DNA of 64,000 nucleotides from the NCBI GenBank assembly GCA_040954595.2, contig CM082587.2, positions 8,049,705 through 8,113,704 on the forward strand, in the 5' to 3' direction. This DNA comes from Balanoglossus misakiensis (taxonomy: Eukaryota; Animalia; Hemichordata). The notes under the pieces were generated by a model. The model saw only the letters and a program-made list of their open reading frames with translations. It was not told the DNA's origin and did not search any database. Numbering within the stretch: the stretch's first letter is position 1; each line of letters opens with the position of its first letter. A program made the position numbers and the translations under genes. Below are positions 751 through 61,017 of the stretch, piece by piece.

Positions 751-3099
751 AATTTAAAACAGATGAGAGACAATACCAAATGATACAATGTTAAAGGTGA
801 CATTATAACCCCAAAACGTATCGATCAGCAGTTGTAAATAAATTATCCACACATACCATATAATTAAGTTCATCCGGGCGTATTTTACAAATTTGGGGTC
901 CGATGTAGGCTTCAATTACAAAGAAATTTATCGTGATTAAAATCGCAGGTAGAACGCACCTTCGAGCGTCGTAGTTACAGGTACGAGGGACTTTTGATAG
1001 TGGAATAGGAAGCACTGAACACTAACAGTCTTTGTTTTCATTCCAACAAGATGGATTTTTCGCCACAACATGTAGAACCACAGTTAGGTGGCCATGCGAC
1101 AAAACAATTAGACACTCCCTATAGAACATATAAGGGTACAATGAAACGAAGAGTGATTGTAGGCCTTTAATAATAGGATTTCGTAGTAGCCAAAACAGAG
1201 TATAAATGTCTGTTCTCTACGGGTTTTAAAGGCGGGTTGCTGTTTACACGGTAAATTTATCAGCGTGACTGTAGACATGTTTGGCCCAACAACTATCGTG
1301 ATACTACAAGTCGACGGCGTCAATCTCGGTTTTCGCGCACTTAGTGGAGGCATGGGTTATAATTTTGAGACAGAGATCTCCATTTGTTCGAGGTCAGTAA
1401 TTCGATCAGTTGTGTGTAAGTGCAAGTTGGTGAAATCGGCATCTCATTGTACGGCTTAGCCCTTGAGGTCAGGCAGCTCAGCAGGTAAAGGTTATACTCA
1501 AGTTGTTGTATGTTCTAAGTGTAGGCCCCTGTACAAATAGTCACCGAACAAAGGATTAGAGTTTTCCCTCTTGTTAAGGATGTGTGGCTGAGACGAAAAC
1601 TTGGGTCGTCTGCATTCGTGGGTCATTCGGCTTCAAACGAGGTTGATGGCGGGTGGCAGGGAGAGCCTTTCTCAACACTGTAAGTGCGATAAAAGGTCCA
1701 CTACGCCCGTGGCCGACAGGTCTGTAGCTCTCAGCTATACAGTGCGGATTTGGGTAGTTTGTACCAAGGAAGGTAAACAGTGTCGTAAAATCGATAAAGT
1801 AACCATTGATAAACATCTGACGTGAAAGGTCATATCATAGAGTGAATAACTGAAGACGATGGAAGTTCGGAATATAAGGGTCATTATACTGAGATGTAAT
1901 TGATTTCAAATAATAAGGTTGTTATCTAAACGCATAATGTTATACATTTGTAGAAGTAGGTGAAGATACATTATTAATTTCACTTACCAACGATTAATGT
2001 GTACATGTACAGTATGCAACGCATTCTCGAGTTAAATAGACACGGAACCACCTGCTTGACTATTAATTATAATTTATGCAATAATCTTCAATAATTGAAC
2101 GCTGGAAAATTCGTATTTGGTATTTCATTTTAGTCTTACTCATCACTTTTGGTTTACCTTTTAAAATTTGCAGCACAGTCGAAACACTATGGGTAAAGAC
2201 TCGGTCAAAGTTTATCTCGCCTCGAACACGCTCTACTTGTACTAGATTGTACTCACTTGCTGGTGGGAGACTTTGGACTACATGCCCAATTATTTATGAG
2301 GCCACTCACCTCCTTACAAACAATGATGCTTTCTCTGCCGTTTGAATGAGTTTCTCGTCTGTATTTGAAATTCAAAGAAACCCCTTAGGCTACATGTCTA
2401 GAAAAAATCACTTTGTAGTTACTGAATACAAGAACACCAATAGCCACTACCCTGACACCCAAAAAACTAAGCACATGACTAACTCGCATTTGGCATTTAC
2501 AAACAAGTCATCCGCGAACGAGACTGGAAGGCGTTCGCGAACGAGGCTGGAAGGCGTGGCTTTCTGGTATGCAAATACAGATACAAATGGCTCTCGATAA
2601 CGAAGACACGTCGTCGAAGAGACTTCTCCGACTTAGCTTTATTATATTTACTGTAAAAGGACAGTTTTGGTGTGATGGTCGTGACAGACACTAGTATATA
2701 GTGTTGTGTCTTAATTCCCCTCGTCGACGGTAGTAACACCATCGTCCGTTCACACGTGCTCGCTCGACTAGATGCTGTCTCCTATTTTCCGGAGAGCAAT
2801 GGCGACCTTGGCGGGCGAAGCGCGAAGATGTGGCAACCAACACTTGGCATTTCTCTACTAGAGCACGTGTACTCTGGGCACCGTACTCCTCACGGGATCT
2901 GATTCACTCAGATCAGTACACGTCCTAGTGTTAATGCCGCATCATGTGTTGAGTGCGTAGCCACAGAGTGGCCAGAATGAAATGACAGTTTATTATCAGT
3001 CGGTACACATCATGACATTTTCGGCCTATATTTGGAGTGCATGAGTGTGCATGGGTGATAAACTTAATTAAGGACCCTGTATTAAGCTCGAAGTCAAAT

Positions 3100-4700
3100 A
3101 CAGAGCTAGGTTTTGGCATGCCATGCTGTTATTAGTTATAATACAATTTGGCATGGCATTTTCGTTAAGTTAAGAGCTAGGGGTGGCCAAACAATGCGTT
3201 TTATCAACCCCTACAGTACCCAACTAGGGGAGGGGAGGCCATGACATTTTACTGGTAGTAGTATCAGTTAAAGATCAAAGCAAGACGTTGACAGACATTT
3301 TACTAAACCAAGTACATGGCTTAGGAATGGGCATTACAGTTGATTAAATGTTTCAGTTCAGAACTAGGAAAGGGCATGACATTTTACTAACACTTCAAGT
3401 ACCAGTACAATTCTTGGGGTGGGAGTAACATTTTTATTTAACAACTATAGAGAAGCAGGGAGGGCATGACATTTTACTATGGGTTGTACTTTTAAAACGA
3501 GTGTTGGGCATGACATTTGACTAAGTTATAGTGCAGAACTATGAATGGGGGCATGACACTTTACTAACAGTTCAAGTACCAGTACAACCTTAGAGAATGG
3601 GCATAACATTTTTTTAACAACTAGAGAGAAAAGGGGGCATGACATTTTTATTATGAGTTTTAGTTCAAAGCGATTGTTGGGCATGGCATTTTACCAACAG
3701 TTCAAGTACATAGCAAGGCATGGCATTGTACTGCCATTTGATACAAGTACTATAATAATAAGTGTAACATTTAACAGTATTAGTGTTGAGTAGAGGAGGG
3801 ATGACATTGTTATTACTTAAAGGCAGGTAAGCTGTAACTTTTGGGATAATTTTTGTTTCAAACTGAACTACCATTAGTCCATGCAGATGAAGGCAGTGAA
3901 CTATACACAAGCATTATAAACCCTAAATATGAGTGCATATGCAAGTTTTAACCAGATAAATAATAAAGCTTTGCTGCAAGCGATTATGGCCGCCACCGTG
4001 GGAAAATGCAAGAAACAATGAAAATGTTGCATTTCAAGTTGTGAAACTTCATAAACAAAACATGATCTCATCCACTTGAGCTCATGGAAGTAAATGTTCA
4101 CCACTGAGACATCAGATTTTCATTTTTCATTGCAATATTGCACTTTTTTAAAAATTGCAGGAATTTTCGTTTTTCTTTAATTTTTGGCAATTTTGTCATA
4201 AATAAGTGTTGAGCTTGATATATTATCATGAAATAGCATTTAATAGACATAATTAAAAGCATATATGAGATTATTTAAAACTTTAATTTTTTATCCAGTT
4301 GCAGCTTACGTGCCTTTAATGTACAAAACTAGGGAGATAAGTTTTACTAACATTTTATAGAACACATTATTGGAGATGTGCACAAGTCAACCTGTTATCA
4401 GCAGGTGTAGTACTGAACTAGGGAAGCGGCATTTCATTATAAGTCACAGTAGAGAGCTGGGGTTGGCATAACATTTTACTTAATAGATTTGTACTAGTAC
4501 AAGGATAGGGATAGGAATATCATTTCATTAACAGCTGAAAAACATAACAGGAAGGGGGGGGGAGTATGACATTTTATGATTAGTTATATAGTTTCACTAT
4601 TGGTATAACATTTTAGTATCACACATTGTACAGAACTAGGAGCGGGCATTTCACTTTATTAACAGTGAGTCTTAGTACAGAGCATTTTTTCATGCAGTTG
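3100..4700. repeat. Degenerate ~55-60 bp tandem repeat
   Basis: Recurring AGAACTAGG...GGGCATGACATTTTACTAACAG-like motif; interrupted by the MITE at 3821-4315. Confidence 0.75.
3821..4315. mobile_element. Non-autonomous TIR element (Kolobok-type MITE)
   Basis: TTAA at 3817-3820 and 4316-4319; ends AGGCAGGTAAGCTGTAACT / AGTTGCAGCTTACGTGCCT are imperfect inverted repeats; TTAA TSD with purine termini is typical of Kolobok. Confidence 0.8.
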
Positions 4701-5039
4701 CGGTTTGCATGGTAACATTCAAAGCTTTTTTTTGTTATATTGTTTATGTTGATGCCATGTCAGATACCTCACGTGCAACTAGCACTGTTTCATGTACAAG
4801 TATTTTTCAGCAACAGTGTAGGTTTTGATGTCGAGTTCAGGATATACTCCCTTACAGTGTAAATCTTGCAAACTCATTTCATAGTCAACGCAAAAACAAG
4901 ACATTCGAAAAGGCTGACGATAAGTGTGTCATGGTGACCTATTCTTTTATTGGTCACGGTGTCGTATTATCAGTAGCGATCTGAAGAACAGAATGAAAAC
5001 TGATTCTGAAAAATGTCCTTTTATTTTTTAGGAATACCC

Positions 5040-5480
5040 CAGGTTCTTGTTGAGACGTTTCACAATAATCCACCCAATGGTATTGAGAGATCCATTAGTA
5101 ACTTTATTTCGTCAATTGTTGTTTCTTTAGATTTACCTCGTATAGCACATGGGCTTAAAATATGTAAACATCTCAGAAGTGTCAACAATTCATTTAAATA
5201 ATCAGGCGCCTGCCATGTAGTATTTTAAAACTCTGAACTGCAATAGAGTAATCAATTCTAAAATCTACAGACAACCAATGGAGAGTTAATGTCACCAGAG
5301 AATAAGAAGCAAATGTTACATCGACTCCTAAGATCACTCTACCAGCTCTTTTTCTGAAGTTATGTTGCTGATTGGTTTTCTAAGTATTGCCCCAAACAGT
5401 GCAACAATAGTCAATTACAGAAAGAACAAATTGCATTGTAAACCAGACAAATAGTACAGAACATCTTAGGTATAATCCAG
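5040..5480 (-). mobile_element. Degraded LINE (L2/CR1 group) ORF2 C-terminal fragment
   Basis: FVLSVIDYCCTVWGNT and downstream QAPDYLNEL motifs typical of the post-RT region; stops and frameshifts. Confidence 0.7.
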
Positions 5481-16669: not shown

Positions 16670-16915
16670 ACCTGATACAGGTGCGAGGCTGCCCAGGGTA
16701 TGAAACCAAACATTTCTCGAGCCTAATAACTGACGGAATATTCTTTCTAAGTCTCATGCGATATTGCCGGGTCCCGTTGAAAACAGAGGGCTCGTCGTTA
16801 AACACGCACTTCCGTGTCGCCAGCACCGTACCATACCCCGACAGAATGTGCTGGACAAAGTTATCGTCCAGCTCATTATCGATGGAAAGAGCCGTTAAAA
16901 TAAGTTGTCCCGTAC
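16670..16915 (-). mobile_element. Tx1/L1-type ORF1 (ZCCHC3-like gag) fragment
   Basis: ELDDNFVQHILSGYGTV...FNGTRQYRMRLRKNIPS...VSYPGQPRTC, truncated at the first Cys of the zinc knuckle. Confidence 0.75.
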
Positions 16916-17709
16916 GTAGTTTGAGATCTCCAGGTCGTGTCTTGCGAGATCAAAGACAACAATCTTCTCCTTATTATAAGCATATGAGACGTCCTTACTA
17001 GCAGTTGTATCGGCCCAAAATGCATTATGCACGCACCGTAACCCTTGAGCCTGTTTCCCTGTTCATCAACGATGAACATTATCTGGCGGTCGTTCTGATT
17101 CTGCAACTGCTCAAATGCTTCTCTCCGCCAAGGTCTTAAAGGCTTTCCTCTGGAATTTGGCCTTCTTTGCTTCCAGGGTCTTTCTCTGGACTATATTGTC
17201 TGCGAAGTGTTGCACTTTGTTCTGGTATAAATAATAATGCTCCCCATGCTTCTCTACAAGTTGATCCTCATCAAGGTCAGGGTTGCTAAGTCCTTGATCA
17301 ATCAATCAAAAACATTTATATGGCGCCAATATCCAGAGAACTGTTCAGTGGCGACCAACTGGACTAGGTCTCTTCTTTGGCCGGGTTTGATGGACGTACC
17401 CTATTCCTGGAAATCACCGCCTTTACTGCAGAATTTTCGGTTGTCTACCGGACTGCAACGGGCCACTTCGCTTTGGCGCTTCAGTTGCAAGTACTGCCCT
17501 TGTAGGTGAGGTACTTGCTTGTTCTCGCCGACTTCCTTGCCTATGATGAGATACTGCAGCTTGTTTAGGTTGGCTAGTATAGCGTCGTACTCTTCCTGGG
17601 TCCAGTTATTCAGCATAAAACAAAAGCTCTTCCCGCGAACGTCTGGTCTTCTTCGGTACTGGCCGTATTCTCTTGGGAAGCCATCTCGAGTTGTTGGTTC
17701 AGCGTTCAA
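16915..17709 (-). pseudogene. rep: Endogenous CRESS DNA virus replication initiator (HUH endonuclease + SF3 helicase), decayed
   Basis: Motif I FCFMLNN, motif II IGKEVGE...PHLQG, motif III NRKFCSKGGDFQE*G, GQRRDL, LRPW...QNDRQIMFIVDEQGNRLKG (degenerate Walker A), AYNKEKIVVFDLAR (Walker B); premature TAG at 17401-17403 and frameshifts. Confidence 0.92.
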
Positions 17710-20577: not shown

Positions 20578-23500
20578 ATGAAGGTAATTTTGCTGACGAT
20601 TTTCCTTGTTTGCATGTGTTTGGTTCAGGCATTGTCTCCCCATGAGCAGAAGAAGGCCATCCGTCAATTTTTCGGTAAGATATCAAAATAATATCACGTA
20701 TACATGGTAAAAAATTTATGTCGAATAATTTTCCGTAGTCCACTGAGATACCGGTAGTTCTGACATTCACTGCGGAAACACCAACACAAAAATGTGCAAC
20801 TTTCGTACAATTATTATTATTATTATATTATAAACTTTATTTCGGACTCATGGTCCATTTTACAGTAGGACTAATTAGTTGAAAGGGAAAAAAAATTACA
20901 TATATATCTAAATGACAAAAAGAAGCTTATTCCAAAGGCTCAAAGTGTCAGAATTAAAATACAATGTATCATGCACTTGCCGCACAATGACATTTTGGCA
21001 GTTATGTATTTGAAGATATTGCCAAGTACAATTTCTTGTGCGCAAATACTTCCTCTCCCATTCTTTTATTATCAAAATAGGCCCATGGGGGTTACAGCAG
21101 TATGGAAAGAAACAAGTAGGAGGTAAGGGAACGTGACAATTATCCACTGTTGGGAATTAACATCAGCAGGATGGTTTTGGGAAATGGCACTTAACACACA
21201 CACACAGAATTGTAATACATATATTGAGAGAAGATCTATCCTATCTAACATCAGAATCAACATTAATATTTAATATAATTATATAATCCCATAACATTTT
21301 TCTTTATTTAACGTCTTCAAGTTAATAAGACAAATACATTGCTAACACCTGTAAATGTGTACTGGTATCGTAGGCAGAACTGGCTTTATGGCAGCAGAAA
21401 TGTGTCAGTGCCGGTAGAATTATATTTGCTTTGCTTGTGTGCGTGTGTTTGGTTCGGCCATTCATCTTCATGGAGGTAAATTGCATGAAACGATAACATT
21501 AATAATCTTCGCTGCCTTTAAAATGACTATGATACCGGTAGATCGGGGATAATAGATTCTTCATAAAACTACACGTAATTATTATGAAAGTAGTCAAGCT
21601 GACAATCAATAACCATATGCTTTCATGTGGTGTCAAATAAACTATGTCTTACTATCAGTTAATTACGGTGGCCGATACCAACACTGCTCTGCTAATTATA
21701 CCTGCTCTGCTGTCGACCTGCTCTGCTATGCTAAGTCGACCTCCTCTGCTAACTTAATCTGCTCTGCTAAGTCAACCTCCTCTGCTAACTAAGATAGAAA
21801 GTTCAGACAGCGTCAGTCTGATAGTTACGAAATTAATTATTAAAACGTTCGTCGGCCTGTATAAAAAAGATAGCATATGATGCTTATATATACCTACTTT
21901 TGTACCAAAGAAAACTATGAATAAAGATACCAACCTGTTTCAGGTACTTCGAGCACCACATGGAACCCTGTGAGGCAACGCCTCGATGTAGTCAATTTCC
22001 CCCCTCTTAGGATAAGAACACCAACACTAGCCTACAACATGCAAAACCAAAGAGAATGCAGTTAGTTAATCATGGAATCCAGACTTAAACATTTAACTAA
22101 ACCAACATTATTCTGTGTCCTTCTCTACCCTAAAGTAACATTAGTGATACATTTGTCTTATAAATGATGTTTTAATGAGATGTTTTAGATACCGAAAAGG
22201 GATAACAGTTGTCCAAAGAACATTTGCATAACAGCAACAAGTAAGCAAATTTCTATTTTAAAATTGTGTTAACATATGATGCTAACATTTATTCTAGTGT
22301 TAAAATAATAGTAGAAAAAAATACATACAACAAAAACTGAGCAACATTTTAATTTTGATTATGTAGGAATGTGTAGTCCCATGGTTCAAAATATACAAAA
22401 GGATCTAAAAATAATCAAGGCACTTTCTATCTCACTTTATAACAGGTAAAATATTTGTTAACTTATTTTTCATGCAAAAAACAATGAACATCATGCAGGT
22501 AAATTAAACTTATTATATTCATTAGCCATGCATGCAGTTGGAAAAGCAATAATCATGAACAGAACACAGGGACCAAAGCATACTTTGACAGTTTGAGGTG
22601 GCTTCTTTCTCCTGGTATTTATTTTTTTAATCTCCAAAAATGTCCCTGTAAAAAAAAACAGTGGACATGAGCTTTATGAACCTACTTTACCACATTACTC
22701 ATCTCGTGACCACATTCGTGAAAATCGCGTCAAGGACACGGTGGGTGAGTTTTGACCAATTCCACATTTTCGCAGCTAAATTGCATATTTTTGGTAATTA
22801 CAACTTCATTTGAACAAAATCCCATCTGCAGCCACGCATAAATCAGCACACCAAATATCGAGGTGATACGCTAAGTGGTTTTCAAGTTTTTGATGTGGAT
22901 GGACATACACACATCCATACAGTCACAACCGATCCCATAATGTCCTATGGTATTAAATATACATATACCAAATGGGACCCAAAAACAGTTGTATACCTCT
23001 TCTTTTTCCCTTTCCTTCCCCTTTTCATATTGACTGGTTTACCGATACTTCTGAGCCAGAGACTTTCTTTGTTTCAATTCAAGGTTACCTAAACCAGACA
23101 CTTTTTTTTTCTCAAAATGGACAGTTTACTTACAAATCAGATGTGGTTACTGAACATGTGTTCTTAATTAATATAGAAAATGTGTATCTGTTTCTGTTAA
23201 AGACAGCATACTTACTATTTTGTCTAACTGGCAAAGGCGGCGTTGGTGGTGTGGGCGTCAACAGTTCCTCCCCCAAGTACTTCACGAAGTTTGCTGGGAA
23301 TGACCCAGCAAACTCCCTATCTCTCACTTTACCAATAAGCCATCCTCTTGGTTGTTGAGGGGTACCATGGAACTTCCATGGTAACCCCTCAACTTCAATG
23401 ATATCATCAGTTTTCATAGATATTTCACTACTGCTCTCTGCCATAAAAGTATGGCATACTCTGTACAGGAACATTATTTTCTGTTGGGAGATGAATAAAG

Positions 23501-26500
23501 ACATAAGACAACTTACAAGTCACAGAAACAGAGTGATCCATTAGTTTCATGACTTGATTATAATTATGCTTGGTGTGAATCCTGCTTGCTGATTGGCAAG
23601 AGCCAGGGTTTATATTCTCGACAAAAAAAATTGACCAAGAACAGTGAATAATTATAAAAAATGGAACACATACAAGAGATCACACCTTACTGGATGTGGG
23701 ATAACATGGATAAAGTCGTGCGACTTTAGAAATTCTATAACACTTCGCTCGGTGATTATTTCCCGCCAAATATACTAATTTTCACGTGAGAGGTCCTGCA
23801 CCCAAATACCCTCTGGCAGCCGTTTAACCTCTAAATATAACGTTTAGCCAATAGTCAGTCTAAGAAAAAAGACTCCTTGAAAAATCTTTCACGATATTTA
23901 TTTCATCATATTGGGCTGAACGGATCAGCAAATTTCCACAGAAAATGACGGGCAGCTACAGGCAGTAATTAGTAGGACCGCAAATAAAGTTTTGATTTCA
24001 AGGATTGGAAAGTGGGGAAACAATTGCCTCTAATTGCAGACGTTGTCGCCGCCTACAAAATCCGTATCTTTGAAACAAAATTTTATGGATAAGATATTCA
24101 TATATTATTTCTATTATCGCTTACAGCTTTCTCCGTTCGCCCAAATCAGTGTTCAAACTTCAGCAAGTCCGGCCGCATGTGAGACGAGCGTATGTTTGTT
24201 CGTAAGAAATGTACTCCAGTACTTCCGGTTAACTCAGCAGAGCAGGTCGACTTAGCATAGCAGAGCAGGTTGACAGCAGAGCAGGTATAGTTAGCAGAGC
24301 AGTGTCGGTATGGGCCACCGTAGTTAATACATGCTGACATTAATACCAAACTTCTGCAGATTATCAAACGTTTGCACCAGAAGAAACTTCTATTATCTTC
24401 TATTAATAACAATTGATGATCTATTTTCTTTCTTTCTAGATTGTTATTGTACTTGTAAGTATTACTCTGCATATTTTTTTTCAATTTCGAAAGTTTTCTG
24501 TGTCCATGTATGCACATAAAATAACTGGCACATCGTGCGATAGCAGCCGACGCTGGACTTAGAGATGGGTCAAGAGATGATGATTTAATTAGACACACAA
24601 TGTAAATTGCTCACTCAGTTAATACAAATTTCAACACATGATCAATTTTTAAACGAGGTGAACCTGGTATTAGCTATGTTTCATCTGCTCAGTCTCTACA
24701 GATCCGTGGTATGACGGAAAGTATTATTGTGCACAAAATAACTTTTAAATATATGCAATGTATGTATGGGAATTCTAAATGACAAAGTATAATTGAATAT
24801 AAATGAAAGTTGTATCCCTTTGTTTCATTATACCCTGTAGTATATTATAAAGTAGGGTAATGTGATAAACCATTGAATTGATTATTATTACTTTCAGTCA
24901 ACAAAGTTTTGCTTGGTTGGTTGGTTCACTATGTAATTTAGTTTCAATTCAACTTTGTTTTTATAATCAGCTGAAGAAGGCGACATTCGCTTGGTAGGCG
25001 GTTCGTCCGAGACAGAAGGCCGCGTCGAAATCTATCATCAAAATGAGTGGGGTACAGTTTGCGATGACGCCTTCGAAAACATTGATGCAGTCGTGGTGTG
25101 TCGTCAACTTGGCTACACGTAAGCTTATTTTTTATTTATATAGCACAGAAATTGACATCATCTGAATATAACGAGAACATTTGAGGAGTGGTTTATTTTC
25201 TTCGTTCTTACGCCTTGTTTCTGTCTTTCAATTGGCTTGCTGGCAAATGTATCATACAGGACCGGCAGCCTCAGACGAGATGACACTCACCTTTTAAGTA
25301 CACGGCCACTGTCAGACACGTTATGTTTCTTTTGATTTACAGGGGAGGTAGTAGTCTGCCAAGTGCATCTTTTGGACAAGGAACGGGCCAAATATGGCTA
25401 GATGATATTGGATGTAGCGGGAGTGAGAGCAGCCTAAGTGACTGTACACATCCTGAATGGGGAACTCACAACTGCCAGCATAGTGAAGATGTCGGAGTTT
25501 CATGTGAAGGTATTTACTTTTTGTTAACAATATTTTTGAAGTAATATCATCTTGTGTAACAGGCAGTAATGCAATGTGGTAACTTTATAGCTTATTCGTA
25601 TTTACTTTTTACAAAATGCTAATGAACCATAACAAGTATCTATAACGTCTTCTTCTCTTAAATTATTTTTATTTACAGTAGGCAGTCCATCAACAGGTAA
25701 GATATCCAAATTGAATGTGTAGCATTTCAATGTGTCATGGTCTGAACGAAACAGCGTCAGCAAAGAAGTTGCGAATTGTTCAAATGAATGTGATATTTTC
25801 ATCAAAAATTCAAGCCTATTTAAAAAAAAAGCTTTTTCCAGATCTTATTATATAAGTTAAATTAATCATTAATCCTTTTGGTCATCAAAGTTTTTTTTCG
25901 GTGGTGTACTGTTGTTTAGTTACAATTCAGTTTTCAATTGGCTTTTTAAAATCAGCTGAAGAAGGCGACATTCGTTTGGTGGGAGGTTCGTCCGAGACAG
26001 AAGGCCGCGTCGAAATCTATCATCAATATCAGTGGGGTACAGTTTGTGATGACTACTTTGAAGACATTGATGCAGTTGTGGTGTGTCGTCAACTTGGCTA
26101 CACGTAAGCTTGTTTTTTATTTGAATAGCACAGAAATTGACATCTTCTTAATATAACGAGAACATTAGAGAAGTAGTTTATTTTCTATGTTCTTGCCCCT
26201 TGTTTTCTGTCTTTTTATTAAAAATTTTCCCAGGTGAATACCTTTGGTGAAACCTGTTAATAATACACAGACAATCATGAAAATATACGTGCAACCTGCG
26301 GAGACAATGTTAACGTGACATTTGTCAATTTTGATTAAACTCGGTAGAATATAACTTTGTCTACGATGACATATGATTCAGATGGCGTATTTCCATCTGT
26401 ACAGTGAGACCCTGCCAAACGATATCGAATTAACTTGAAAAGATGATACATCATATTTGCTAAGGTGTGAATTGTAATGTAACAAACGTTATGATCAATG

Positions 26501-29500
26501 ATGTATATTTAGAAGTTATAAACAGCTAACCGCAGTCGCAGACAGGATTAGACTCTCGTTTTAAGTACACACAGAAATGTCACAGCCACTGTCAGACACG
26601 TTATGTCCATTTTATTTACAGGGGAGGTAGTAGTCTGTCAAGTGCATATTTTGGACAAGGATCGGGCCAAATATGGCTAGATGATATTGGATGTAGCGGG
26701 AGTGAGAGCAGCCTAAGTGACTGTACACATCCTGAATGGGGAACTCACAACTGCCAGCATAGTGAAGATGTCGGAGTTTCATGTGAAGGTATTTAGAGTT
26801 TGTTTACCGGTATAATAGTTTTGAAGTAATATCATCTTGTGTATCAGGCGATAATGCAATGTGGTAACTTTATAGCTTATTCTTATTTACTTTTTACAAA
26901 ATGCTAATGAACCATAAATAGTATTTTATAACGTCTTCTTCTCTTAAATTATTTTTATTTACAGTAGGCAGTCCGTCAACAGGTAAGACAATTCTTCATA
27001 TATGTTTTATCCAAATTGATTGTGTGGCATTTCCATGTTTTATGTTCTGAACGAAACAGTGTCCGCAAAAAAGTTGCGAATTTTTTGTAAATTTACGTTA
27101 ATTAATGTAATATTTTCATCAAAAATACGAGCCTATTTAAAAACAAGAACATTTCCATGATCTTATTATATAAGTTAAATTGATTATGATTACTTTCGGT
27201 CTTTGAAGTTTTGCTTGGTTGGTGTACTGTGTTATTTAGATTCAATTCAGTTTTCAATTGGCTTTTTAAAATCAGCTGAAGAAGGCGACATTCGCTTGGT
27301 GGGAGGTTCTTCCGAGACAGAAGGCCGCGTCGAAATCTATCATCAATATCAGTGGGGTACAGTTTGTGATGACGCCTTTGAAAACATTGATGCAGTCGTG
27401 GTGTGTCGTCAACTTGGCTACACGTAAGCTTATTTTGTATTTGAATAGCACAGAAATTGGCATTTGAGAAGTAGTTTATTTTCTTAGTTCTTACGCCTTG
27501 TTTTCTTTCCTGAATGAATTGAATACCTTTGGTGAAAACTTGTTAATAATACACAAACAAATATGAAAATATACTGACACTAGTAAGACAATACTAACCA
27601 CATGAAATTGGTCAATTTGAATCAAACTTGTTACAATATAACTTTTATCATTGAAGACGAAGTCCTAACAAAATCATTCAGTCCGTGTGTTTCCAACACT
27701 ACAGGGAGATACTGGCAAAAATATCGAAATAACTTTAAAATATGATACATCTCATTGTTTGCCATGGGTTATAAAAATAAACAAACATATTGCTCAATAT
27801 GTGTATTGTATAGCAGTTAAAATGTGTGTATACATATGTAGGCTTGCCATAGCAACTGTGTCATACAAGAAGCACAGTCGCAGACGAGATGACACTCACC
27901 TTTTAATCAAACACAGAAATGTCACAGCCACTGTCAGACACTTTAAGTTCATTTTACAGGGGAGGTAGTAGTCTGTCAAGTGCATCTTTCGGACAAGGAA
28001 CGGGCCAAATATGGCTAGATGATATTGGATGTAGCGGGAGTGAGAGCAGCCTAAGTGACTGTACACATCCTGAATGGGGAACTCACAACTGTCAGCATAG
28101 TGTAGATGTCGGAGTTTCATGTGAAGGTATTTAGTTTTTGTTGATAATAGTTTTGAAGTAATATCTTGTGCAACAGGCGATAATGCAATGTGGTAACTTT
28201 ATAGCTTATTCTTATTTACTTTTTACAAAATGCTAATGAACCATAACGAGTATTTTATAACGTCTTCTCCTCTTAAATTATTTTTATTTACAGTAGGCAG
28301 TCCATCATCAGGTAAGATATCCAAATTGATTGTGTGGCATTTCAATGTGTCATGGTCTGAACGAAACAGCGTCAGCAACGAAGTTGCGAATTGTTCAAAT
28401 GAATGTGATATTTTCATCAAAAATTCAAGCCTATTTTAAAAAAAAGCTTTTTCCAGATCGTATTATATAAGTTAAATTAATCATTAATCCTTTTGGTCAT
28501 CGAAGTTTTTTTTTGGTGGTGTACTGTTGTTTAGTTACAATTCAGTTTTCAATTGGCTTTTTAAAATCAGCTGAAGAAGGCGACATTCGTTTGGTGGGAG
28601 GTTCGTCCGAGACAGAAGGCCGCGTCGAAATCTATCATCAATATCAGTGGGGTACAGTTTGCGATGACTTCTTTGAAGACATTGATGCAGTTGTGGTGTG
28701 TCGTCAACTTGGCTACACGTAAGCTTATTTTTTATTTGAATAGCACACAAATTGACATTTGAGAAGAAGTATATTTTCTTAGTTCTTACACCTTGTTTTC
28801 TTTCCTGAATGAATACCTTTGGTGAAAACTTGTTAATAACACACAAACAATTATGAAAATATACTGACACTAGTGAAACAATACTAACCACATGAAATTG
28901 GTCAATTTGAATTAATTTTGTTACAATATAACTTTTATCATTGAAGACATAAGTCCTAACGCAATAATTCAGTTGGCATGTTTCCAACACAGGGAGATAC
29001 TGGCAAACAATATCAAAATAACTTGAAAATAGGATACATCTCATTGTTTGCCATGGTTAATAAAAATATACAAACGTATTGCTCAATATGTGTATTGTAT
29101 AGCAGTTAAAATGTGTGTATACATATACACATGTAGGCTTGCCATAGCAACTGTGTCATACAAGAAGCACAGTCGCAGACGGGATGAGACTCGCCTTTTA
29201 AGTACACACAGAAATGTCACAGCCACTGTCAGACACGTTATGTTCATTTTATTTACAGGGGAGGTAGTAGTCTGTCAAGTGCATCTTTTGGACAAGGAAC
29301 GGGCCAAATATGGCTAGATGTTATTGGATGTAGCGGTAGTGAGAGCAGCCTAAGTGACTGTACACATCCTGAATGGGGAACTCACAACTGCCAGCATAGT
29401 GAAGATGTCGGAGTTTCATGTGAAGGTATTTAGTTTTTGTTAACAATAGTTTTGAAGTAATATTTTGTGCAACAGGCGATAATGCAATGAGGTAACTTTA

Positions 29501-32500
29501 CAGCGTATTCTTATTTACTTTTTACAAAATGCTAATGAACCATAACGAGTATTTTATAACGTCTTCTTCTCTTAAATTTTGATTTACATTAGGCAGTAAT
29601 ATCTTGTGCAACAGGCGATAATGCAATGAGGTAACTTTACAGCGTATTCTTATTTACTTTTTACAAAATGCTAATGAACCATAACGAGTATTTTATGACG
29701 TCTTCTTCTCTTAAATTATTTTTATTTACAGTAGGCAGTCCATCAACAGGTAAGATATCCAAATTGATTGTGTGGCATTTCAATGTGTCATGGTCTGAAC
29801 GAAACAGCGTCAGCAACGAAGTTGCGAATTGTTCAAATGAATGTGATATTTTCATCAAAAATTCAAGCCTATTTAAAAAAAAGCTTTTTCCAGATCTTAT
29901 TATATAAGTTAAATTAATCATTAATCCTTTTGGTCATCGAAGTTTTTTTCGGTGGTGTACTGTTGTTTAGTTACAATTCAGTTTTCAATTGGCTTTTTAA
30001 AATCAGCTGAAGAAGGCGACATTCGTTTGGTGGGAGGTTCGTCCGAGACAGAAGGCCGCGTCGAAATCTATCATCAAAATGAGTGGGGTACAGTTTGTGA
30101 TGACTACTTTGAAGACATTGATGCAGTTGTGGTGTGTCGTCAACTTGGCTACACGTAAGCTTATTTTTTATTTGAATAGCACAGAAATTGACATCATCTG
30201 AATATAACGAGAACATTTGAGAACTAGTTTTTTTTCTTAGTTCTTACGCCTTGTTTCTGTCTTTTTATTACTACTTTCCTAAACGAATACCTTTGGTGAA
30301 AACTTGTTAATAATAGACAGACAATTATGATAATATACAGACACTAGCGAGACACTACTAACCCCATGACATTTGTTAACTTCGATTAAACTCTTTACAA
30401 TATAACTTTTGTCTTTGATAACATATGCACTAACAAAATTATTCGGTTTGCATGTTTCCAACTGTACAGGGAGACACTCTCAAACTATATCCAAATTACA
30501 TGAAAATATGATACATCTCATTGTTTGCCATGGTATGCATTTTAATATATATAAACAAACACATTGGTCAATGATGTATATTGTATAGGAGTTGAAATTT
30601 GTGCATACCTAGGCTTTCTGTAACAACTGTGTCATACAGGAACCATAGTATCAGACGGGATAAGACTCGCCTTCTAAGTACACACAGAAATGTCACAGCC
30701 ACTGTCAGACACGTTATGTTCATTTTATTTACAGGGGAGGTAGTAGTCTGTCAAGTGCATATTTTGGACAAGGATCGGGCCAAATATGGCTAGATGATAT
30801 TGGATGTAGCGGGAGTGAGAGCAGCCTAAGTGACTGTACACATCCTGAATGGGGAACTCACAACTGCCAGCATAGTGAAGATGTCGGAGTTTCATGTGAA
30901 GGTATTTAATTTTTGTTAACAATATTTTTGAAATGATATCATCTTGTGTAATAGGCGATACTGCAATGTGATAACCGTAAGGCGTATTCGTATTTACTTT
31001 TTACGAAATTCTAATGCACCATGATGAGTATTTTCTAACGCAATCTTCTCTTAAATTTTGATTTACATTAGGCAGTCCGTCGACAGGTAATATATCTTCA
31101 TATATGTTCTATCCAAATTGACTGTGTGGCATTTTCTAAAGGAAACAAGCCAGAAAAAAAGCTGGAATTTTTGGAAATTCATGTCGATGAATGTAATATT
31201 TCCATCAAAAATACGAGCCTATTTAAAAAACAACCGCATTTCCATGATCTTATTACATAAGTTAAATTGATCATGATTACTTTCAGTCAACGAAGTTTTG
31301 CTTGGTTGGTGTACTGTATCATTTGTTTTCAACTAAGCTGTGTTTTTATAATCAGCTGAAGAAGGCGACATTCGCTTGGTAGGCGGTTCGTTCGAGACAG
31401 AAGGCCGCGTCGAAATCTATCATCAAAATGAGTGGGGTACAGTTTGTGATGACTACTTTGAAGACATTGATGCAGTCGTGGTGTGTCGTCAACTTGGCTA
31501 CACGTAAGCTTATTTTGTATTTGAATAGCACAGAAATTGACATCTTCTTAATATAACGAGAACATAAGAGAAGTAGTTTATTTTCTATATTCTTGCCCCT
31601 TGTTTTCAGTCTTTTTATTAAAAATGTTCCCAGATGAATACCTTTGGTGAAACCTGTTAATAATACACAGACAATCATGAAAATATACGTGCACTAGCGG
31701 AGACAATGTTAACGTGACATTTGTCAACTTTGATTAAACTCGGTAGAATATAACTTTGTCTTCGATGACGTATGATTCAGATGGCGTATTTCCATCTGTA
31801 CAGTGAGACCCTGCCAAACGATATCGAATTAACTTGAAAAGATGATACATCATATTTGCTAAGGTGTGAATTGTAATGTAACAAACGTTATGATCAATGA
31901 TGTATATTTAGAAGTTATAAACAGCTAACCGCAGTTGCAGACGAGATGACACTCACGTTTTAAGTACACACACAAAGGTCATAGCCACTGTCAGACACGT
32001 TCCGTTAATTTTTCAGGGGAGGCAGTTTTCGGTCAAGTGCATATTTCGGACAAGGATCGGGCCAAATATGGCTAGATGATATTGGCTGTATAGGATGTGA
32101 GAGCAGCCTAAGTGACTGTACACATCCTGAATGGGGAACTCACAACTGCCAGCATAGTGAAGATGTCGGAGTTTCATGTGAAGGTATATACTTTCTGTTT
32201 TAATAGTTTTGAAATGATATATTGTTGGTAATAATTCTGTGTGCTGACTTTATAACTTATTCTTATTTACTTTTTAACAAAATGCTAATAAAAGGTATTG
32301 TTTTTAAATTCTGTTGATTTATAGGAGGCAGCCCGTAAACAGGTGAGATTAATCTTATTAATAAGCTAAGTATAGTAAACATTTAATTTGAATTTACAAT
32401 ATTATTTATGCCCAAAGACAGCATTTCTAGCCAGTTTTAGCAATCAAAGTTTAACTTAAAATAAATATCCAACTTGAGCATATTGCCAGCGTAAGTTAAT

Positions 32501-37500: not shown

Positions 37501-40500
37501 GAAAAACATAGAACATGCAAAGCCTGTTGTGAGGTATATGATCCCAACCATGCATTCCTCCCAGAAATGTCAACTTATATATGCTGTTTAGTTCCACATT
37601 TCCAGAATATTAGGCCTTATAAACGATGTATGCAATATGTAAGTAATTCGTGTATACCGGTAGACATACCCAGCTAATTTAATTCCAACCACATGGCTGT
37701 ATGGGTGTAGGCGTAAGTGCCTTACCTTTCGCCATCTTCAGTGCCAATACAGTCACACCATCTTTACCCGCGAAGTCACGTGCCTCAGCTTTGAAGACTG
37801 CGCCGAATGAGCCTTCGCCGATAAGACCCCCCTTACTGACGTACTCTCGCGGACGTACTTTCGAGTGTCTACACCTTTTAAACAGTACAACAACAACGAT
37901 GGCGATGCAGGCGACGATCAAAGCGCTGATGGTAGAAACAGCAATTGTGGAAACATAGGATGATGTCGACTTCACTGTCATGGAAAATAATCCAAAAAAT
38001 GTGTCCATCAGGTATTTAAATATTATATTCCGTAACATTGTGAACATTTCTTAAAGCACCGTTTGGCGATTATTAGCCTAAAATGTATTCCATTGATCAA
38101 AAGGTACAACCGCAGGCAAATTGGCACTTTGCATTCATCGAATTAAACGGCGTCGCACCATTCCATCTTTCATTCTCCCTGTTTCCAACATTGGAGTATT
38201 GGCAACATCCCCATTAATGTGATAGTGACGAAAGTCACCGATTCGACATTCTTAATTGCAACAAAAACTTGTTTTGCAACATGCAACAACTGTACAACCA
38301 CAACAACCATCACCAAGTAAAGTGCACACGCCCTCCCTCCTGCACATCAAATCTTCGAATGTTAAACAATGAATACCACTGCAATCAAAATCTTGCAAAA
38401 TGACTTACACTTGACCGTGACCTCGACTGAGGGACTGCCAGTCTCCTGTTCACTTCCGTCGTAAAACTGGGTCACTGACCTACAACTATAATCACCGTCC
38501 ATCCACAACTCAGCGTTTTCGATTGTGAAGACATGTGACGTTGCATCTGCGACCTTTACTACGAATGTGCCGCTGGTGTTGGTCTGACACACGCTAAGCT
38601 GGTAAGGATCTGGATTTCCATCACGGGCCGTACACTCTATCACCAAGTCAGAACCTTCGACCACTTGCTCTCGTTGTACCAGGATTGAAACGTCTGATGC
38701 ATCTGTACACGGATAGAGAGAACCGACGGCAATCAAAATCCTTATGGTAATCAACTGTGCCTAAAATCCGTCTGCCTGTCTGTCTTTGTTTGTTTATGTA
38801 TATACGTCTGTACGTGTCTGTCTGTCTGCCTGCCTGCGTGCCTGCCTGTCTGTCTGTCTGTATGTACGTGTACGCACGCACGTACGTATGTATGTATTTA
38901 TGTATGTATCTATGTAGCTATGTATATCTATGTAGCCATGTATATCTATGCATCTATGTATGTATTAGACCGCTGGGTGGTATGTAGGTTTTTTTTCAAA
39001 TACTGTGGCTAGGCTGTACTTACATTCCACAATCAATTCAAGACTCTTCTCGGCCACCATAGTGGAATTATCATACAGACGGTTAGTCGCCACGCACATA
39101 AAGGAGCCGGCATCTGTTTTGGCGGCGTTTCCAATGGTGTAACTCGCTCCATCGTAAATTTCCTGCCCGTCCCTAAACCATTCCACGTCGGAAGCCGTTG
39201 GATTGGCATCTACCAGACATTCTAGGGTGACTAGCTCACCTTCTTTGGCGCGTACTTCATCACTGGCAAACATGATTTCTGGACCGTCTGTAATGTAGAC
39301 AGATACAACTTTGGCCTTAAAAACCCTTTACGGTTGTTTATACCATTTTCAGGAATGGGAAGCCAAGAAAACGTATAATATCGAAATCGTATATTAATTC
39401 CTTGTGACAAGCAAGACTAGTGTAGTTATAAGATATCCAGTAGTGCCGAGATTGTAATTGTTGAAATAGTAAAGAGAACATTACATTCACACAAGTAATA
39501 TAATTTATTAAATTAAACGAAAAATGTGACTTACACTGTACATTAATTACAATTTCTTTTTTACAGGTCAATATCGATGACTGTTCGTCTGTGAGGGACG
39601 GGTGTTCTAATCTGCAATCAAACCGGGCACCATTCTCGGTCTTGTCGAGGGTTGTGGTGAGGTCGTTCATCATTCCGGTCACTCTCTTCTCCTCAACGCC
39701 GTTCTTATACCAAACCAAATCGCCAAATGATGACAACATACACACAAGGGTGATCTCTTCGTCTTCAATCGTCGTGTAGCCAGGTTGTACGCTGCACTCT
39801 GGCCCATTTACTACGTGGGCAAATTCAACAGATGGTTCGTAAATTTAGAAATAGTGATTGTGGTGTGTGGTGTTACTGGTATGTGTTTGCATTATTTACC
39901 CTTTTCTCCGGTTTGCTTGAAATATGACTATTATATGTGAAAGTTAGCACCAATATACGTTCAATGCGGGCGATCAATAAGCATTACGTGAGGTCTTGCT
40001 GCAGGAAGTGAAGGAACATATAATTCACTTCATCACTCATGAAAATAACGTTTGCACAGGTTGCCAGACAATGCATGTTACTGTTGTTGTATTATACTAC
40101 CCTAAATTATTTTCAAACGTTACTTTTTACTAATAATTAATCTCCGTGCTTAAAATTGTACATATACCACTTACTTTTCATAAATTCCACGACGAAAATG
40201 TGCCGTCAAAATGTCGTATACTTACCAATTACAGAAAGGTTGGCTTTGGCGAATATTGATGAATCGAAGAACTCCTGACATGCGTAGATGTCCGACAGCT
40301 CGGGTGTCGCCCTCAATACCTTCAAGTGAAACTCGTACTGGGTGTCGTCCCCGACAATTTCGTAGACGTCGCTGTCGTCCACCGTTCGATCCAGGGATAT
40401 CCTGGTGCTTCCTTTCATCCACACAACCGCCGGGGGCGCACTCACGAAAGAACAGTTGAGCTGGACCGTATCGTTGGTGAGGGCAATGGTATCGCTTGGT

Positions 40501-43500
40501 CGCTCCTTGAAAACGTCTTGCTGCGTCACTGAAAAAGAGGAACAAAACATGAAATGTATGGAAAATGTTAGAGAAGATATAATCCAAGGGCTATATAGTT
40601 GTATACAGCACAGTCTGTGTTGAGTGACTGTGTCTATAGCGTTATCTACTAATAATAACCCGTCCGAAAACTTCTTGGTTATAAACAATCGCATATCACA
40701 GGGAAAATTGATGTTATGTGGTCAGATCATGAAAATAATGTTGATAACCCTTCCGTACTGTCACCATGATTAGACAATACAATTATAAACATTTTGCAAG
40801 TCCCTCACACCCAGCATCAAATCTCCACCCAGTGTCTGCTCTAAATTAAACGAATGACTTAAACTTTGAAATAAGTCGATATATGCCTCTTACATGTGAA
40901 AATTCGCACCAATGTACGTGTCAAAGTGGGCGATTAGTGAAGAAGCATAACGTTGCGTCTTGCCACAGAAAGTGAAGCATGGGTACATAAATTATACACT
41001 TCATCACTCATGAAAATAACGTTTGCGCAGGTTGCCAGACAATGTCTATTAAAGTTGTTTTGTTATACTGCCCTAAACGATTTTGAAACGTATGACTTTT
41101 TTCTCATAATGTAATGTAAAATTGTACATGTAGTACTTTTTCCATAAATTCGTCAACGTAAAGATATCGTAATATACTTACCAATTACAGACAGGTTGGC
41201 TTTGGCGGAAATTGACGAATCGAAGAAGTCCTCACACGCGTAGATGTCAGACAGCTCGGGTGTCGCCCTCAACAGCTTCAAGTGAAACTCATTCTGGGTG
41301 TCGTCACCGACAATTTCGTAGACGTCGCTGTCGTCCACCGAGCGATCCAGGGATATCCTGGTGCTTCCTTTCAGCCAAATCACCGCCGAGGGCGCACTCA
41401 CGAAAGAACAGTTGAGCTGGACCGTGTCGTTTGCGAGGGCAATGGTGTCGCTTGGTCGCTCCTTAAAAACGTCTTGCTGCGTCACTGGAAAAGAGGAACA
41501 AAACATGAAATTTATGGAAAATGTTAGAGAAGATATAATCAAAGGGCTATGCAGTTTTGTTAATAGGGTGACATATTAAAAAGCAAAAACCACACGATGG
41601 CTTCAAGTTCAGCTTGTATTTTTTTGTCATTTACTCCACTGACTATAGTTATGTACGTACGTACGCACGCACCTATGTATCTATGTACATGTATGTATCT
41701 ATGTATATCTATGTAGCCATGTATATCTATGCATCTATGTATGTATTAGACCGCTGTGTGGTATGTACTTTTTTCAAATACTGTGGCTAGGCTGTACTTA
41801 CATTCCACAATCAATTCAAGACTCTTCTCGGCAACCATAGTGGAATTATCATACAGACGGTTAGTCGCCACGCACATAAAGGAGCCGGCGTCTGTTTTGG
41901 CGACATTTCCAATGGTGTAACTCGCTCCATCGTAAATTTTCTGCTCGTCTCTAAACCATTCCACGTCGGAAGCCGTTGGGTTGGCATCTACCAGACATTC
42001 AAGGGTGACTAGCTCACCTTCTTGGGCGCGTACTTCATCACTGGCAAACATGATTTCTGGACCGTCTGTAATGTAGACAGATACAACTTTGGCCTTAAAA
42101 ACCCTTTACGGTTGTTTATACCATTTTCAGGAATGGGAAGCCAAGAAAACGTATAATATCGAAATCGTATATTAATTCCTTGTGACAAGCAAGACTAGTG
42201 TAGTTATAAGATATCCAGTAGTGCCGAGATTGTAATTGTTGAAATAGTAAAGAGAACATTACATTCACACAAGTAATATAATTTATTAAATTAAACGAAA
42301 AATGTTACTTACACTGTACATTAATTACAATTTCTTTTTTACAGGTCAATATCGATGACTGTTCGTCTGTGAGGGACGGGTGTTCTAATCTGCAATCAAA
42401 CCGGGCACCATTCTCGGTCTTGTCGAAGGTTGTGGTGAGGGTGTTTATCATTTCGGTCACTCTCTTCTCCTCAACACCGTTCTTATACCAAACCAAATCG
42501 CCAAATGATGACAACATACACACAAGGGTGATCTCTTCGTCTTCAATCGTCGTGTAGCCAGGGTGTACGCTGCACTCTGGCCCATTTACTACGTGGGCAA
42601 ATTCAACAGATGGTTCGTAAATTTAGAAATAGTGATTGTGGTGTGTGGTGTTACTGGTACGTGTTTGCTTTATTTACCTTTTTCTCCGGTTTGTGTGAAA
42701 TATGACTATTATATGTGAAAGTTAGCACCAATATAGGTTCTAAGCCGGCGACCAAGAAGCATAACGTGGGGGTCTTGCTGGAGAAAGTGAAGGAACATAC
42801 AGATATAATACACTTCATCACTCATGAAAATAACGTTTGCACAGGTTGCCAGACAATGCATGTTACTGTTGTTGTATTATACCACCCTAAATTATTTTCA
42901 AACGTTACTTTAAACTAATAATTAATCTCCGTGTGTAAGATTGTACATATACCACTTCTTTTCATAAATTCCACGACGAAAATGTGCCGTCAAAATATCG
43001 TATACTTACCAATTACAGACAGGTTGGCTTTGGCGGAAATTGACGAATCGAAGAAGTCCTCACACGCGTAGACGTCAGACAGCTCGGGTGTCGCCCTCAA
43101 CAGCTTCAAGTGAAACTCATTCTGGGTGTCGTCACCGACAATTTCGTAGACGTCGCTGTCGTCCACTGAGCGATCCAGGGATATCCTGGTGCTTCCTTTC
43201 ATCCAAGTCACCGCCGAGAGCACACTCACGAAAGAACAGGTGAGCTGGACCGTGTCGTTGGCGAGGGCAATGGTGTCGCTTGGTCGCTCCTTGAAAACGT
43301 CTTGCGTCACTGAAAAAGAGGAACAAAACATGGAAAATGTTAGAGAAGATATAATCCAAGGGCTATGCAGTTTTGTTAATAGGGTGACTTATTAAAAAGC
43401 AAAACCACACGATGGCTTCAAGTTCAGCTAGAATTTGTTTGTAATTTACTTCACTGACTATAGTTGTGGACAGCACAGTCTGTGTTGAGTGACTGTGTAT

Positions 43501-44019
43501 AGCGTTATCTACTTACAATAACCTATCGGAAAACAACCGCATATCACAGGGAAAATGGATGTTATGTGGGCAGATCATGAAAATAATGTTGATAACCCTT
43601 CCCTACTGTCACCATGAATAGACAATACAATTAAAAATATTTTGCAAGTCCCTCACACCCAGCATCAAAACTCCACCCAGTGTCTGCTCTAAATTAAACG
43701 AATAACTTAAAGTTTGAAATAAGTCGATATAACACTTCCTTATTTCTATCATGGTTGGATTATACAGTGTCCATCCATTTTTAGTTCATTAGTAACTCAG
43801 AAATCACTTGATATTTATGTCAGAATTTGCCACTTCATTTCAGTTTATATCCAGCCATACTTCCCAATTCCAAATTTCATGACGTGAACTAAACTTAATC
43901 AGTGACACAATTGCAACTGAAAGACTTCATGCTTGGTGTGACTTACCTGCTGGTTGAGCAAACAAGACAATGATGCACATAAGACGTACGGACACGGAGG
44001 GTGGTAATTTTTCCATCAT
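34590..44019 (-). CDS. Ig-domain receptor tyrosine kinase-like protein (FGFR/RET-related fold), probable pseudokinase
   Basis: Signal exon 44019-43947 [24 protein letters not shown]; eight Ig exons 43310-38410; TM plus IGEGSFGAV...ALK exon ~37978-37725; [11 protein letters not shown] exon 36400-36284; RWMAPE...SDVWSFG; PYPGM; CW...RPSF; last exon [19 protein letters not shown]. Confidence 0.9.
38765..38965. repeat. Compound microsatellite (GTCT/GCCT/GTAT)n
   Basis: Direct reading; partial copy at ~41650-41745. Confidence 0.85.
38900..43730. repeat. Recent intragenic tandem duplication of the Ig exon block (~2.75-kb offset)
   Basis: ~38920-40890 is nearly identical to ~41690-43730, including introns; extra first-type Ig exon at 41180-41487. 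Confidence 0.9.
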
Positions 44020-60500: not shown

Positions 60501-61017
60501 TCATACAGGGTTAACGTTTATTACATATAGGGTTAACTAATAACATATTTTTCATGTATAATTAACGTTATTTCATGTAGAATTAAAGTTTATTACCTAT
60601 AGGGTTAACGTTTATTACATATTGGGTTAGTATTACATATTGGGTTAAGGTGTTATTACATATTGGGTTAGTATTACATATTGGGTTAAGGTGTTATTAC
60701 ATATTGGGTTAGTATTACATATAGGGTTAATTATTACATATTGGGGTGATACAGTCGGTCTGGTTGCGCTGGTGACACTTTTCGTGCTCACCGTGGCGGC
60801 TGGCATAACCGCCGTGCTGTTGCTTGCTTCCAGCGACGATGAGGGCGCCGGATACACGTACTCCAGGGCGGCCGTGGCAGCTGACAATGGCCAGTGTTCC
60901 CAGGTGGGAAGGTATGGCAGTAAATGTACCATTAGCTTTTAAATTCGTATATTCAGAGACCACCATTTTAACGGTAATATACAAGGTTGGCTTAGAAAAG
61001 TCCCAGCAACTTAACAC

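Follow-up and report, generated by a model that had tools for sequence, protein, structure and literature searches.

The locus examined here raises the question of whether an SH3 exon lying in reverse orientation within an SRCR gene is the cargo of a DNA transposon and, if so, from which gene it was derived. In the window (the whole 64,000-nucleotide stretch of Balanoglossus misakiensis contig CM082587.2 that was analysed), the host gene has a signal-peptide-like exon 1 (20578–20674, plus strand) upstream of the element and an exon 2 (24971–25119, plus strand) downstream of it, the latter encoding the first half of the first SRCR domain, as judged by a Pfam SRCR match on the paralogous exon. 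Exon 1 splices in frame to position 24971, and the element therefore lies antisense in intron 1, as the initial annotation had proposed. The SRCR gene most likely removes this copy along with intron 1 on splicing. None of the 9 contig joints listed skips the element to give an empty site, but because contigs drop rare variants, this is no proof of fixation.

The element occupies positions 21664–24322 (2,659 bp) and has ends of the IS3EU/GingerRoot type. Its left inverted end (94 nt) begins with TACGG and leads into 18-nt subterminal CTGCTCTGCT repeats (21664–21790), and its right inverted end (24229–24322, 94 nt) finishes with CCGTA; the two are identical at 87 of 94 positions and differ at 7. 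TACGGTGGCC is located at 21664, and its inverse copy finishes at 24322. An exact 6-bp duplication, GTTAAT, lies directly outside both ends (21658–21663 and 24323–24328), the chance of such a match for a given 6-mer being 5e-4. The 16-nt end motif occurs at only two sites in the window when up to three mismatches are allowed, namely the two element ends, and had no matches in metagenome, prokaryote, or viral contigs. According to two sources, IS3EU elements are defined by TA..TA and TAYGG..CCRTA termini, inverted repeats of >30 bp, and a 6-bp duplication (PMC10045372; PMC12730594), all of which are found here; the former also treats IS3EU and GingerRoot as one lineage, and the group has been reported from acorn worm (PMC11934779). 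A TTAA duplication of the piggyBac/Kolobok type was rejected since it leaves the first bases mismatched, whereas the 6-bp reading gives matching ends. Another TAYGG pair with a 6-bp duplication in the window (35095/49403) has an inverted repeat of at most 6 nt and was attributed to chance.

No transposase was found in the element, in which the longest stop-free frame is 133 aa, nor was any remnant of a transposase or a HECT domain. A Pfam scan of 19 element peptides yielded a single meaningful match, that of the SH3 exon (one other reached E 0.083), and there were no Rfam matches. Because the element has no transposase, its membership of IS3EU is assigned from its ends only. The combination of IS3EU-type ends and a 6-bp duplication in a transposase-free element, as initially annotated, was thus confirmed, and, as in Pack-TIR elements, these ends and the duplication surround genic sequence other than transposase.

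The SH3 exon (exon A; 23216–23480, minus strand) is intact, with an acceptor at 23481 and a phase-1 donor at 23215. Its ATG at 23474 opens 86 codons encoding a p85-type SH3 domain and a proline-rich tail that ends in a PxxPxR motif, in agreement with the initial description of an intact SH3 and polyproline exon with its own ATG. The Pfam match (SH3_9, E 1.4e-5) is below the curated cut-off. The fold is of p85 type: the top PDB profile match is the p85-alpha SH3 (37.3 bits versus 29.8 for the next family), and this domain also ranks first, narrowly, in Foldseek. A near-perfect 40-bp palindrome lies within the SH3 coding sequence (23354–23393; z −6.5, 0/200 shuffles). A p85-type SH3 at the N-terminus with a proline-rich region after it is the arrangement of PI3K p85 (PIK3R1/2 type), the N-terminus of which likewise has its start codon directly before an SH3 with a long loop insert. 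Unlike PI3K p85, however, exon A represents an offshoot subtype that carries an (L/V)PW motif and has no further p85 domain. Among 17 relatives checked, this motif is present in 5 others, and the DSG(Y/I)xxS motif, which exon A lacks, follows the SH3 in 8. In a tree from a short alignment, exon A falls outside the canonical p85 N-termini (support 91/84), and a clade uniting it with three canonical-type p85 N-termini was rejected on such an alignment (p-AU 0.002), the group tested having been chosen after a first tree had been seen.

Acorn-worm gene models provide the two best named matches of the exon A subtype (E 1.5e-19 and 7.4e-7), one being stand-alone and the other fused to a HECT ligase. 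The related acorn-worm loci are LOC100367875 (XP_077865469.1) and XP_077863811.1, of which the closest to exon A is XP_077865469.1, a 146-aa model without further p85 domains. In tblastn searches with nine relatives, two of which have such domains, no C1, SAM, SH2, or iSH2 sequence was detected in the window, the SH3 exon being the only meaningful match; a lone SH3 is expected for a fragment, but it does not establish derivation from p85 itself. No longer relatives emerged from the searches, which is weak evidence, and no related loci were found in metagenome, prokaryote, or viral contigs. An Atlas search returned generic SH3 clusters only, and no named family was found for the subtype. By sequence comparison, the domain is closest to an offshoot p85-type subfamily and not to canonical p85.

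The remaining gene-like segments of the element are less readily connected with p85. A putative non-coding, CpG-rich first exon (23686–23796, minus strand; donor at 23690 or 23685) contains an E2F-like motif at 23759 (TTTCCCGCCAAA) and an E-box at 23782; there are 7 occurrences of the shorter E2F-like motif across the window. The upstream donor and TTTCCCGCCAAA reported in the initial annotation are thus present, but 23687–23796 has a computed mean depth of >100 times the flank in contigs, and because it lies in such highly repeated DNA, the promoter-like motif is likely to be transposon sequence. Putative exon B (22584–22645, minus strand; 62 nt) would encode a basic peptide, and its acceptor is the highest-scoring one in the element; its donor is deleted in one contig class, and its slight resemblance to the acorn-worm homolog's tail is not significant (492/5000 shuffles). 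Putative exon C (21935–22031, minus strand; 97 nt) is open in the frame of exon B and has no homology; as its variants (4/12 synonymous in the open frame) show no codon-position bias, it is not supported as coding. Both small exons keep frame with the SH3 exon, in line with the initial annotation, but no p85-like protein match was found in the element outside the SH3 exon, and a p85 origin for them was not confirmed. A 4-residue word found both in the frame of the upstream exon and in the acorn-worm N-terminus was dismissed as chance (121/4566 control windows score as well). A nested very-high-copy repeat with a CATA-type tail, overlooked in the initial annotation (about 22700–23010), was also identified; it extends over approximately 22698–23011, as delimited by depth bins, at ~1,500 times the flank depth in X1.

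Public contigs suggest that several copies exist, on the basis of both depth and sequence classes. Depth sums, which are rough values from one sample label of one study and not copy numbers, fall from the arms (~10–40 times the flank, including the right arm at 23900–24228 common to a larger element family) to exon A (~2.5–8 times). Such a step would be expected if the cargo-bearing elements form a subfamily of a larger family, and it implies that most family members are without exon A. Exon A itself is found in at least three classes that differ from this copy by about 7–13%, although the contigs are too short to place these classes inside or outside elements. One contig class (18/275 letters different) has its start at 21790, where it abuts the left subterminal repeats. 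Another, at about flank depth, differs at 23/171 letters without gaps, including 29 nt of intron, and is a candidate for the parent. With 40 of the 56 variant rows listed, the diverged classes show an excess of synonymous changes (19/37 of those listed; pN/pS about 0.3–0.4). Changes private to the other classes are 15 synonymous and 9 non-synonymous (p 3e-4); those private to this copy, 5 changes only, are 2 and 3, respectively (p 0.42), with no such excess. In the deepest class (305.6 in X1), 5/6 private changes are synonymous, an excess equally compatible with selection acting on a mobile lineage and with selection acting on a host gene. The element is probably a low-copy Pack-type element of which this copy is drifting.

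On balance, we favour, by a modest degree of confidence, a single non-autonomous IS3EU/GingerRoot-type insertion whose p85-type SH3 exon was copied at the DNA level from a host offshoot family. In this scenario, repair or template switching would have brought exon A, some adjoining intron, and perhaps exon B into a small non-autonomous family member, which would then have multiplied to a few copies and, after the capture, was probably mobilised by a transposase supplied from another genomic site. That two unrelated insertions, or a chance repeat pair, bracket a host gene fragment is highly improbable: the ends do belong to a many-copy family and differ at several positions, but the exact duplication outside both (p ~5e-4), their correct orientation, and the lack of a third end motif in the window argue for one insertion, as initially annotated, and a native reversed SH3 gene would be unlikely to have diverged copies abutting the same subterminal repeats. 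The initial annotation further held that the 5′ end of a p85 gene had been captured; the p85-type SH3 stands, but the promoter and the p85 source are not borne out, given the offshoot subfamily and the repeated DNA. If the promoter and first exons of canonical p85 had been captured recently, to yield a free SH3 decoy or antisense RNA, the p85-type SH3, its proline-rich tail, and its own ATG would be accounted for. Human p85-alpha dimerises by binding of its SH3 to its proline-rich region (PMC4518712), so that a free SH3 fragment could by analogy compete. The motif differences, the rejected canonical grouping, the lack of other p85 domains in the window, and the repeated promoter motif nonetheless speak against this capture, which we consider very unlikely, and since the copies differ by 7–13%, capture was not recent.

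A more serious alternative, possible though not probable, is that the autonomous IS3EU family itself has long carried the SH3 exon as a passenger under selection, either as the front end of a second gene encoding a HECT ligase or as a stand-alone mini-gene. By this account, the 2.7-kb copy would have arisen by internal deletion, with the right arm retained together with its promoter and the first exons. The gene begins at one arm and reads inwards from a highly repeated promoter-like region, and the synonymous excess extends to all diverged classes. An acorn-worm model joins the first half of the same SH3 (24/47 identical) to a G2E3-like HECT domain, and fungal IS3EU elements carry TET/JBP and alpha-kinase genes. 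Conversely, the fusion is represented by one ‘low quality’ model that contains half of the SH3, exon depth is below that of the arms, and neither a HECT or transposase remnant nor, as weak evidence, a longer relative was found. No published link between IS3EU and HECT was found in the literature searched. Under the favoured capture from a host offshoot family, the CpG-rich right arm could act as the promoter of an RNA spliced to exon A, the product of which would be an SH3 and proline-rich peptide of about 110–150 aa; this copy most likely drifts as a passenger, and it is doubtful that it makes a useful protein.

Gene pickup by the IS3EU/GingerRoot lineage is already known in plants and fungi, which weakens the initial statement that no IS3EU examples were known. 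In Selaginella (clubmoss), 22 of 77 GingerRoots contain gene fragments that are 79–98% like the parent, introns included, and the transposase is usually lost (PMC6839031). Among fungi, captured TET/JBP genes are found in IS3EU elements of rust fungi and truffle (PMC12730594). The present element has the same ends, inverted repeats, and 6-bp duplication as this lineage, but at 2.7 kb and without transposase it is smaller than intact GingerRoots (3.9–12.9 kb). As in the fragment-bearing Selaginella elements, a probable host exon and flanking intron lie inside the ends with no transposase, and their likeness range covers the exon A classes; it differs from them in residing in an animal genome and in its intact cargo exon, which has its own ATG and a synonymous excess among copies. 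The TET/JBP-carrying elements and Styx (PMC10853768) are likewise IS3EU elements with an extra non-transposase gene, but they are autonomous and carry whole passenger genes, whereas this element is non-autonomous with one small signalling domain. Animal Pack-TIRs, which also enclose a captured host segment and may form chimeric RNA, were mostly hAT and Tc1/mariner elements in one survey (4/370 multicopy, median 224 bp; PMC8277862), the text and the 12 searched supplement files of which do not name IS3EU or Ginger.

The element provides a clear-cut case, from an animal, of gene-fragment cargo in the IS3EU/GingerRoot lineage, which has been little studied; it is apparently multicopy, which is rare in that survey, and it points to an offshoot p85-type SH3 subfamily. 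A bolder reading, which we think unlikely, is that IS3EU elements of acorn-worm-like animals have over a very long period carried a p85-derived SH3–proline-rich module, maintained by purifying selection, either as a stand-alone decoy in the PI3K pathway or as the targeting front end of a HECT ubiquitin ligase belonging to the element itself. If this were true, a transposon would have taken a growth-signalling adaptor and would be keeping a host signalling domain under selection.

The element is a real and tidy transposon occupying 21664–24322 (2,659 bp); the coordinates first reported for it had taken in the flanking duplications. It starts with TACGGTGGCC and ends with the inverse of TACGGTGGCC, the first 94 nt of the two ends are alike at 87 positions, and both ends pass into 18-nt subterminal repeats. 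A GTTAAT duplication immediately flanks both ends (chance match of a given 6-mer, ~5e-4), confirming the inverted ends and 6-bp duplication of the initial annotation. Because the duplication is exact and the end motif occurs at just two sites in the 64-kb window, both being the element ends, one insertion is much more likely than two, which disfavours the independent insertions that the initial annotation had named as its refutation. The reported lack of a transposase also holds: the longest stop-free frame in the element is 133 aa, and 19 element peptides gave no meaningful match to Pfam except for exon A, the SH3 exon. Contigs of two sequencing runs, X1 and X2, link subterminal repeats to an element end on the opposite strand (window 21768/24323), which hints at copies nested or arranged in tandem at other genomic sites.

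In PMC10045372, TA..TA ends characterise complete IS3EU families, whose duplications are usually 6 bp long, and a single lineage (bootstrap 99%) unites IS3EU with GingerRoot; PMC12730594 gives the IS3EU termini as TAYGG..CCRTA. All three end features (termini, inverted repeats and 6-bp duplication) were found in the element, and the proposed IS3EU-like assignment thus stands on its ends. Scans of metagenome, prokaryote and viral contigs with the end motif yielded 0 matches. Acorn worm is listed among IS3EU carriers in PMC11934779. The initial annotation knew of no capture by IS3EU elements. Published accounts describe host fragments including introns in 22 of 77 GingerRoots (PMC6839031), TET/JBP and alpha-kinase genes carried by IS3EU (PMC12730594), and two coding sequences gained by Styx (PMC10853768). 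For animals, the corresponding section of PMC6839031 reports transposase matches only, the name IS3EU is absent from the searched portions of the text and supplement of an animal Pack-TIR survey (n=370, multicopy in 4; PMC8277862), and a search of the openly accessible literature, Repbase reports aside, turned up no published animal IS3EU that had captured a host exon.

The sequence at 20578–20674 encodes a signal-peptide-like start and is joined in frame by splicing to the first SRCR exon, at 24971. The element sits in the intron between 20674 and 24971 with its cargo on the strand opposite to the SRCR gene, so that the antisense position in intron 1 is upheld. One X2 contig spans the left junction (21004–21699, with 18 other letters) and another the right (24282–24466), indicating that a second haplotype carries the insertion; the three runs come from the same study and carry a single sample label. 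A decayed partial copy of SRCR exon 1 (33 nt, 85% alike) lies a short way 5' of the element at 21430–21476, and at 24873–32356 and 38869–43731 there are tandem duplications of SRCR exon pairs and of Ig-domain exons whose introns are conserved. Elsewhere, 51716–52069, 52646–52771 and 58319–60753 hold two MITE-like palindromes and a pair of tandem-repeat arrays in inverted orientation, and a minus-strand frame at 16671–16949, weakly similar to ZCCHC3 (E 0.13), is possibly a decayed retrotransposon ORF1.

Exon A (23480–23216, minus strand) has its own ATG at 23474, 86 codons, a Pfam SH3_9 match (E 1.4e-5, below the curated cut-off) and a PxxPxR motif closing its tail, and is intact as described. 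Deletions of 2 and 3 nt directly 5' of the ATG in two contig classes are consistent with its use as the start codon. A near-perfect 40-bp palindrome (23354–23393; z -6.5; 0/200 shuffles) lies within the SH3 coding sequence and spans the loop bearing the PW motif. Exons A, B (22645–22584) and C (22031–21935) join as one open frame. Of the small exon-like segments reported initially, exon B is plausible, its acceptor being the top-scoring one in the element under a simple scoring matrix, but exon C is unsupported, since its variants show no codon bias. None of 768 control peptides matches the acorn-worm tail better than exon B, which shares the top rank, but 492 of 5000 shuffles score as high; one contig class is without the donor of exon B (joint 22578–22622).

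Contig depths, which are rough, inflated by contig overlaps and give no copy number, were 119–132 (X1) and 34–47 (X2) in the flanks, 313–570 and 125–354 at exon sites, and 1,603–5,160 (X1) in the right arm. The computed mean depth of ~15,000 (X1) and ~9,700 (X2) marks 23687–23796 as repeat DNA rather than a unique gene promoter, and the promoter-like motif located there loses its reading as a captured gene promoter. A nested repeat at 22698–23011, with a depth near 190,000 in X1 (~1,500 times the flank) and a CATA-type tail, may resemble Helentron-associated short elements. Every part of exon A is represented by at least three classes, one window-like and the others differing from the window copy at 10/131, 11/129, 11/127 and 23/171 letters; one class lacks 1 bp at 23222. 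Alignment of a further, more distant relative is confined to 23344–23396, in X1 and X2 alike, around the palindrome; when translated manually, the 30-letter loose ends of this relative contain no stop and stay in register with the SH3.

The selection analysis started from 40 of 56 variant rows, of which two were removed, one intronic and one upstream; a further site had two alleles, one left unassigned, and 37 distinct coding changes remained. Synonymous changes accounted for 19 of the 37 vs 21–29% expected (p 6e-5 to 3e-3), with pN/pS ~0.3–0.4. With two three-state sites set aside and classes delimited by matching depths rather than phased sequence, the changes private to the window copy were 2 synonymous and 3 non-synonymous (p 0.42), and those on other classes 15 and 9 (p 3e-4). 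These variants indicate that the exon family has been under protein-level constraint; the changes private to the window copy do not show it for that copy.

The proposed p85-like origin is retained in part. PEX13 and p85 SH3s match exon A by itself about equally, but a profile of exon A and five relatives places p85-alpha clearly first (37.3 bits vs 29.8 for the next), and the p85-alpha SH3 is the first Foldseek row for the predicted model (pLDDT 80) by a small margin. Exon A shares an (L/V)PW motif with 5 of 17 relatives checked, all without the DSG(Y/I)xxS motif found in 8; four have neither. The DSG(Y/I)xxS group was treated as canonical p85 because one member carries SH2 and iSH2 domains and another C1 and SAM. 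In trees from this short alignment, exon A falls among p85-like SH3s but outside the canonical group, the AU test rejects a topology constrained to unite it with three canonical-type rows (p-AU 0.002), and the PW relatives have no real support as a clade. A tblastn search of the window with nine relatives detected no p85-like sequence beyond the SH3 exon.

A non-autonomous IS3EU-type element would have acquired the exon at the DNA level and then transposed in trans a few times. As the main alternative, the exon would be an old passenger of the autonomous IS3EU family. A protein search gave 33 matches among 1.84 billion representatives, the best being acorn-worm XP_077865469.1 (146-aa model; 53%, E 1.5e-19). 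In another acorn-worm model, XP_077863811.1, the SH3 is represented by its first half, fused to a G2E3-like HECT domain; this model may mark an IS3EU element with the same exon and strengthens the passenger explanation. Together with the gene content, the protein matches point to an acorn-worm-like deuterostome as the probable host. That a p85-derived SH3 and proline-rich module has long ridden on IS3EU under purifying selection we consider unlikely. After uptake by a non-autonomous element, the cargo could be transcribed from the right arm, which is rich in CpG (observed/expected 0.9–1.2 at 23664–24263), and the putative product would combine an SH3 with its own ligand motif. Dimerisation of p85-alpha involves its SH3 and proline-rich region (PMC4518712), so that a decoy role for such a product would be conceivable.
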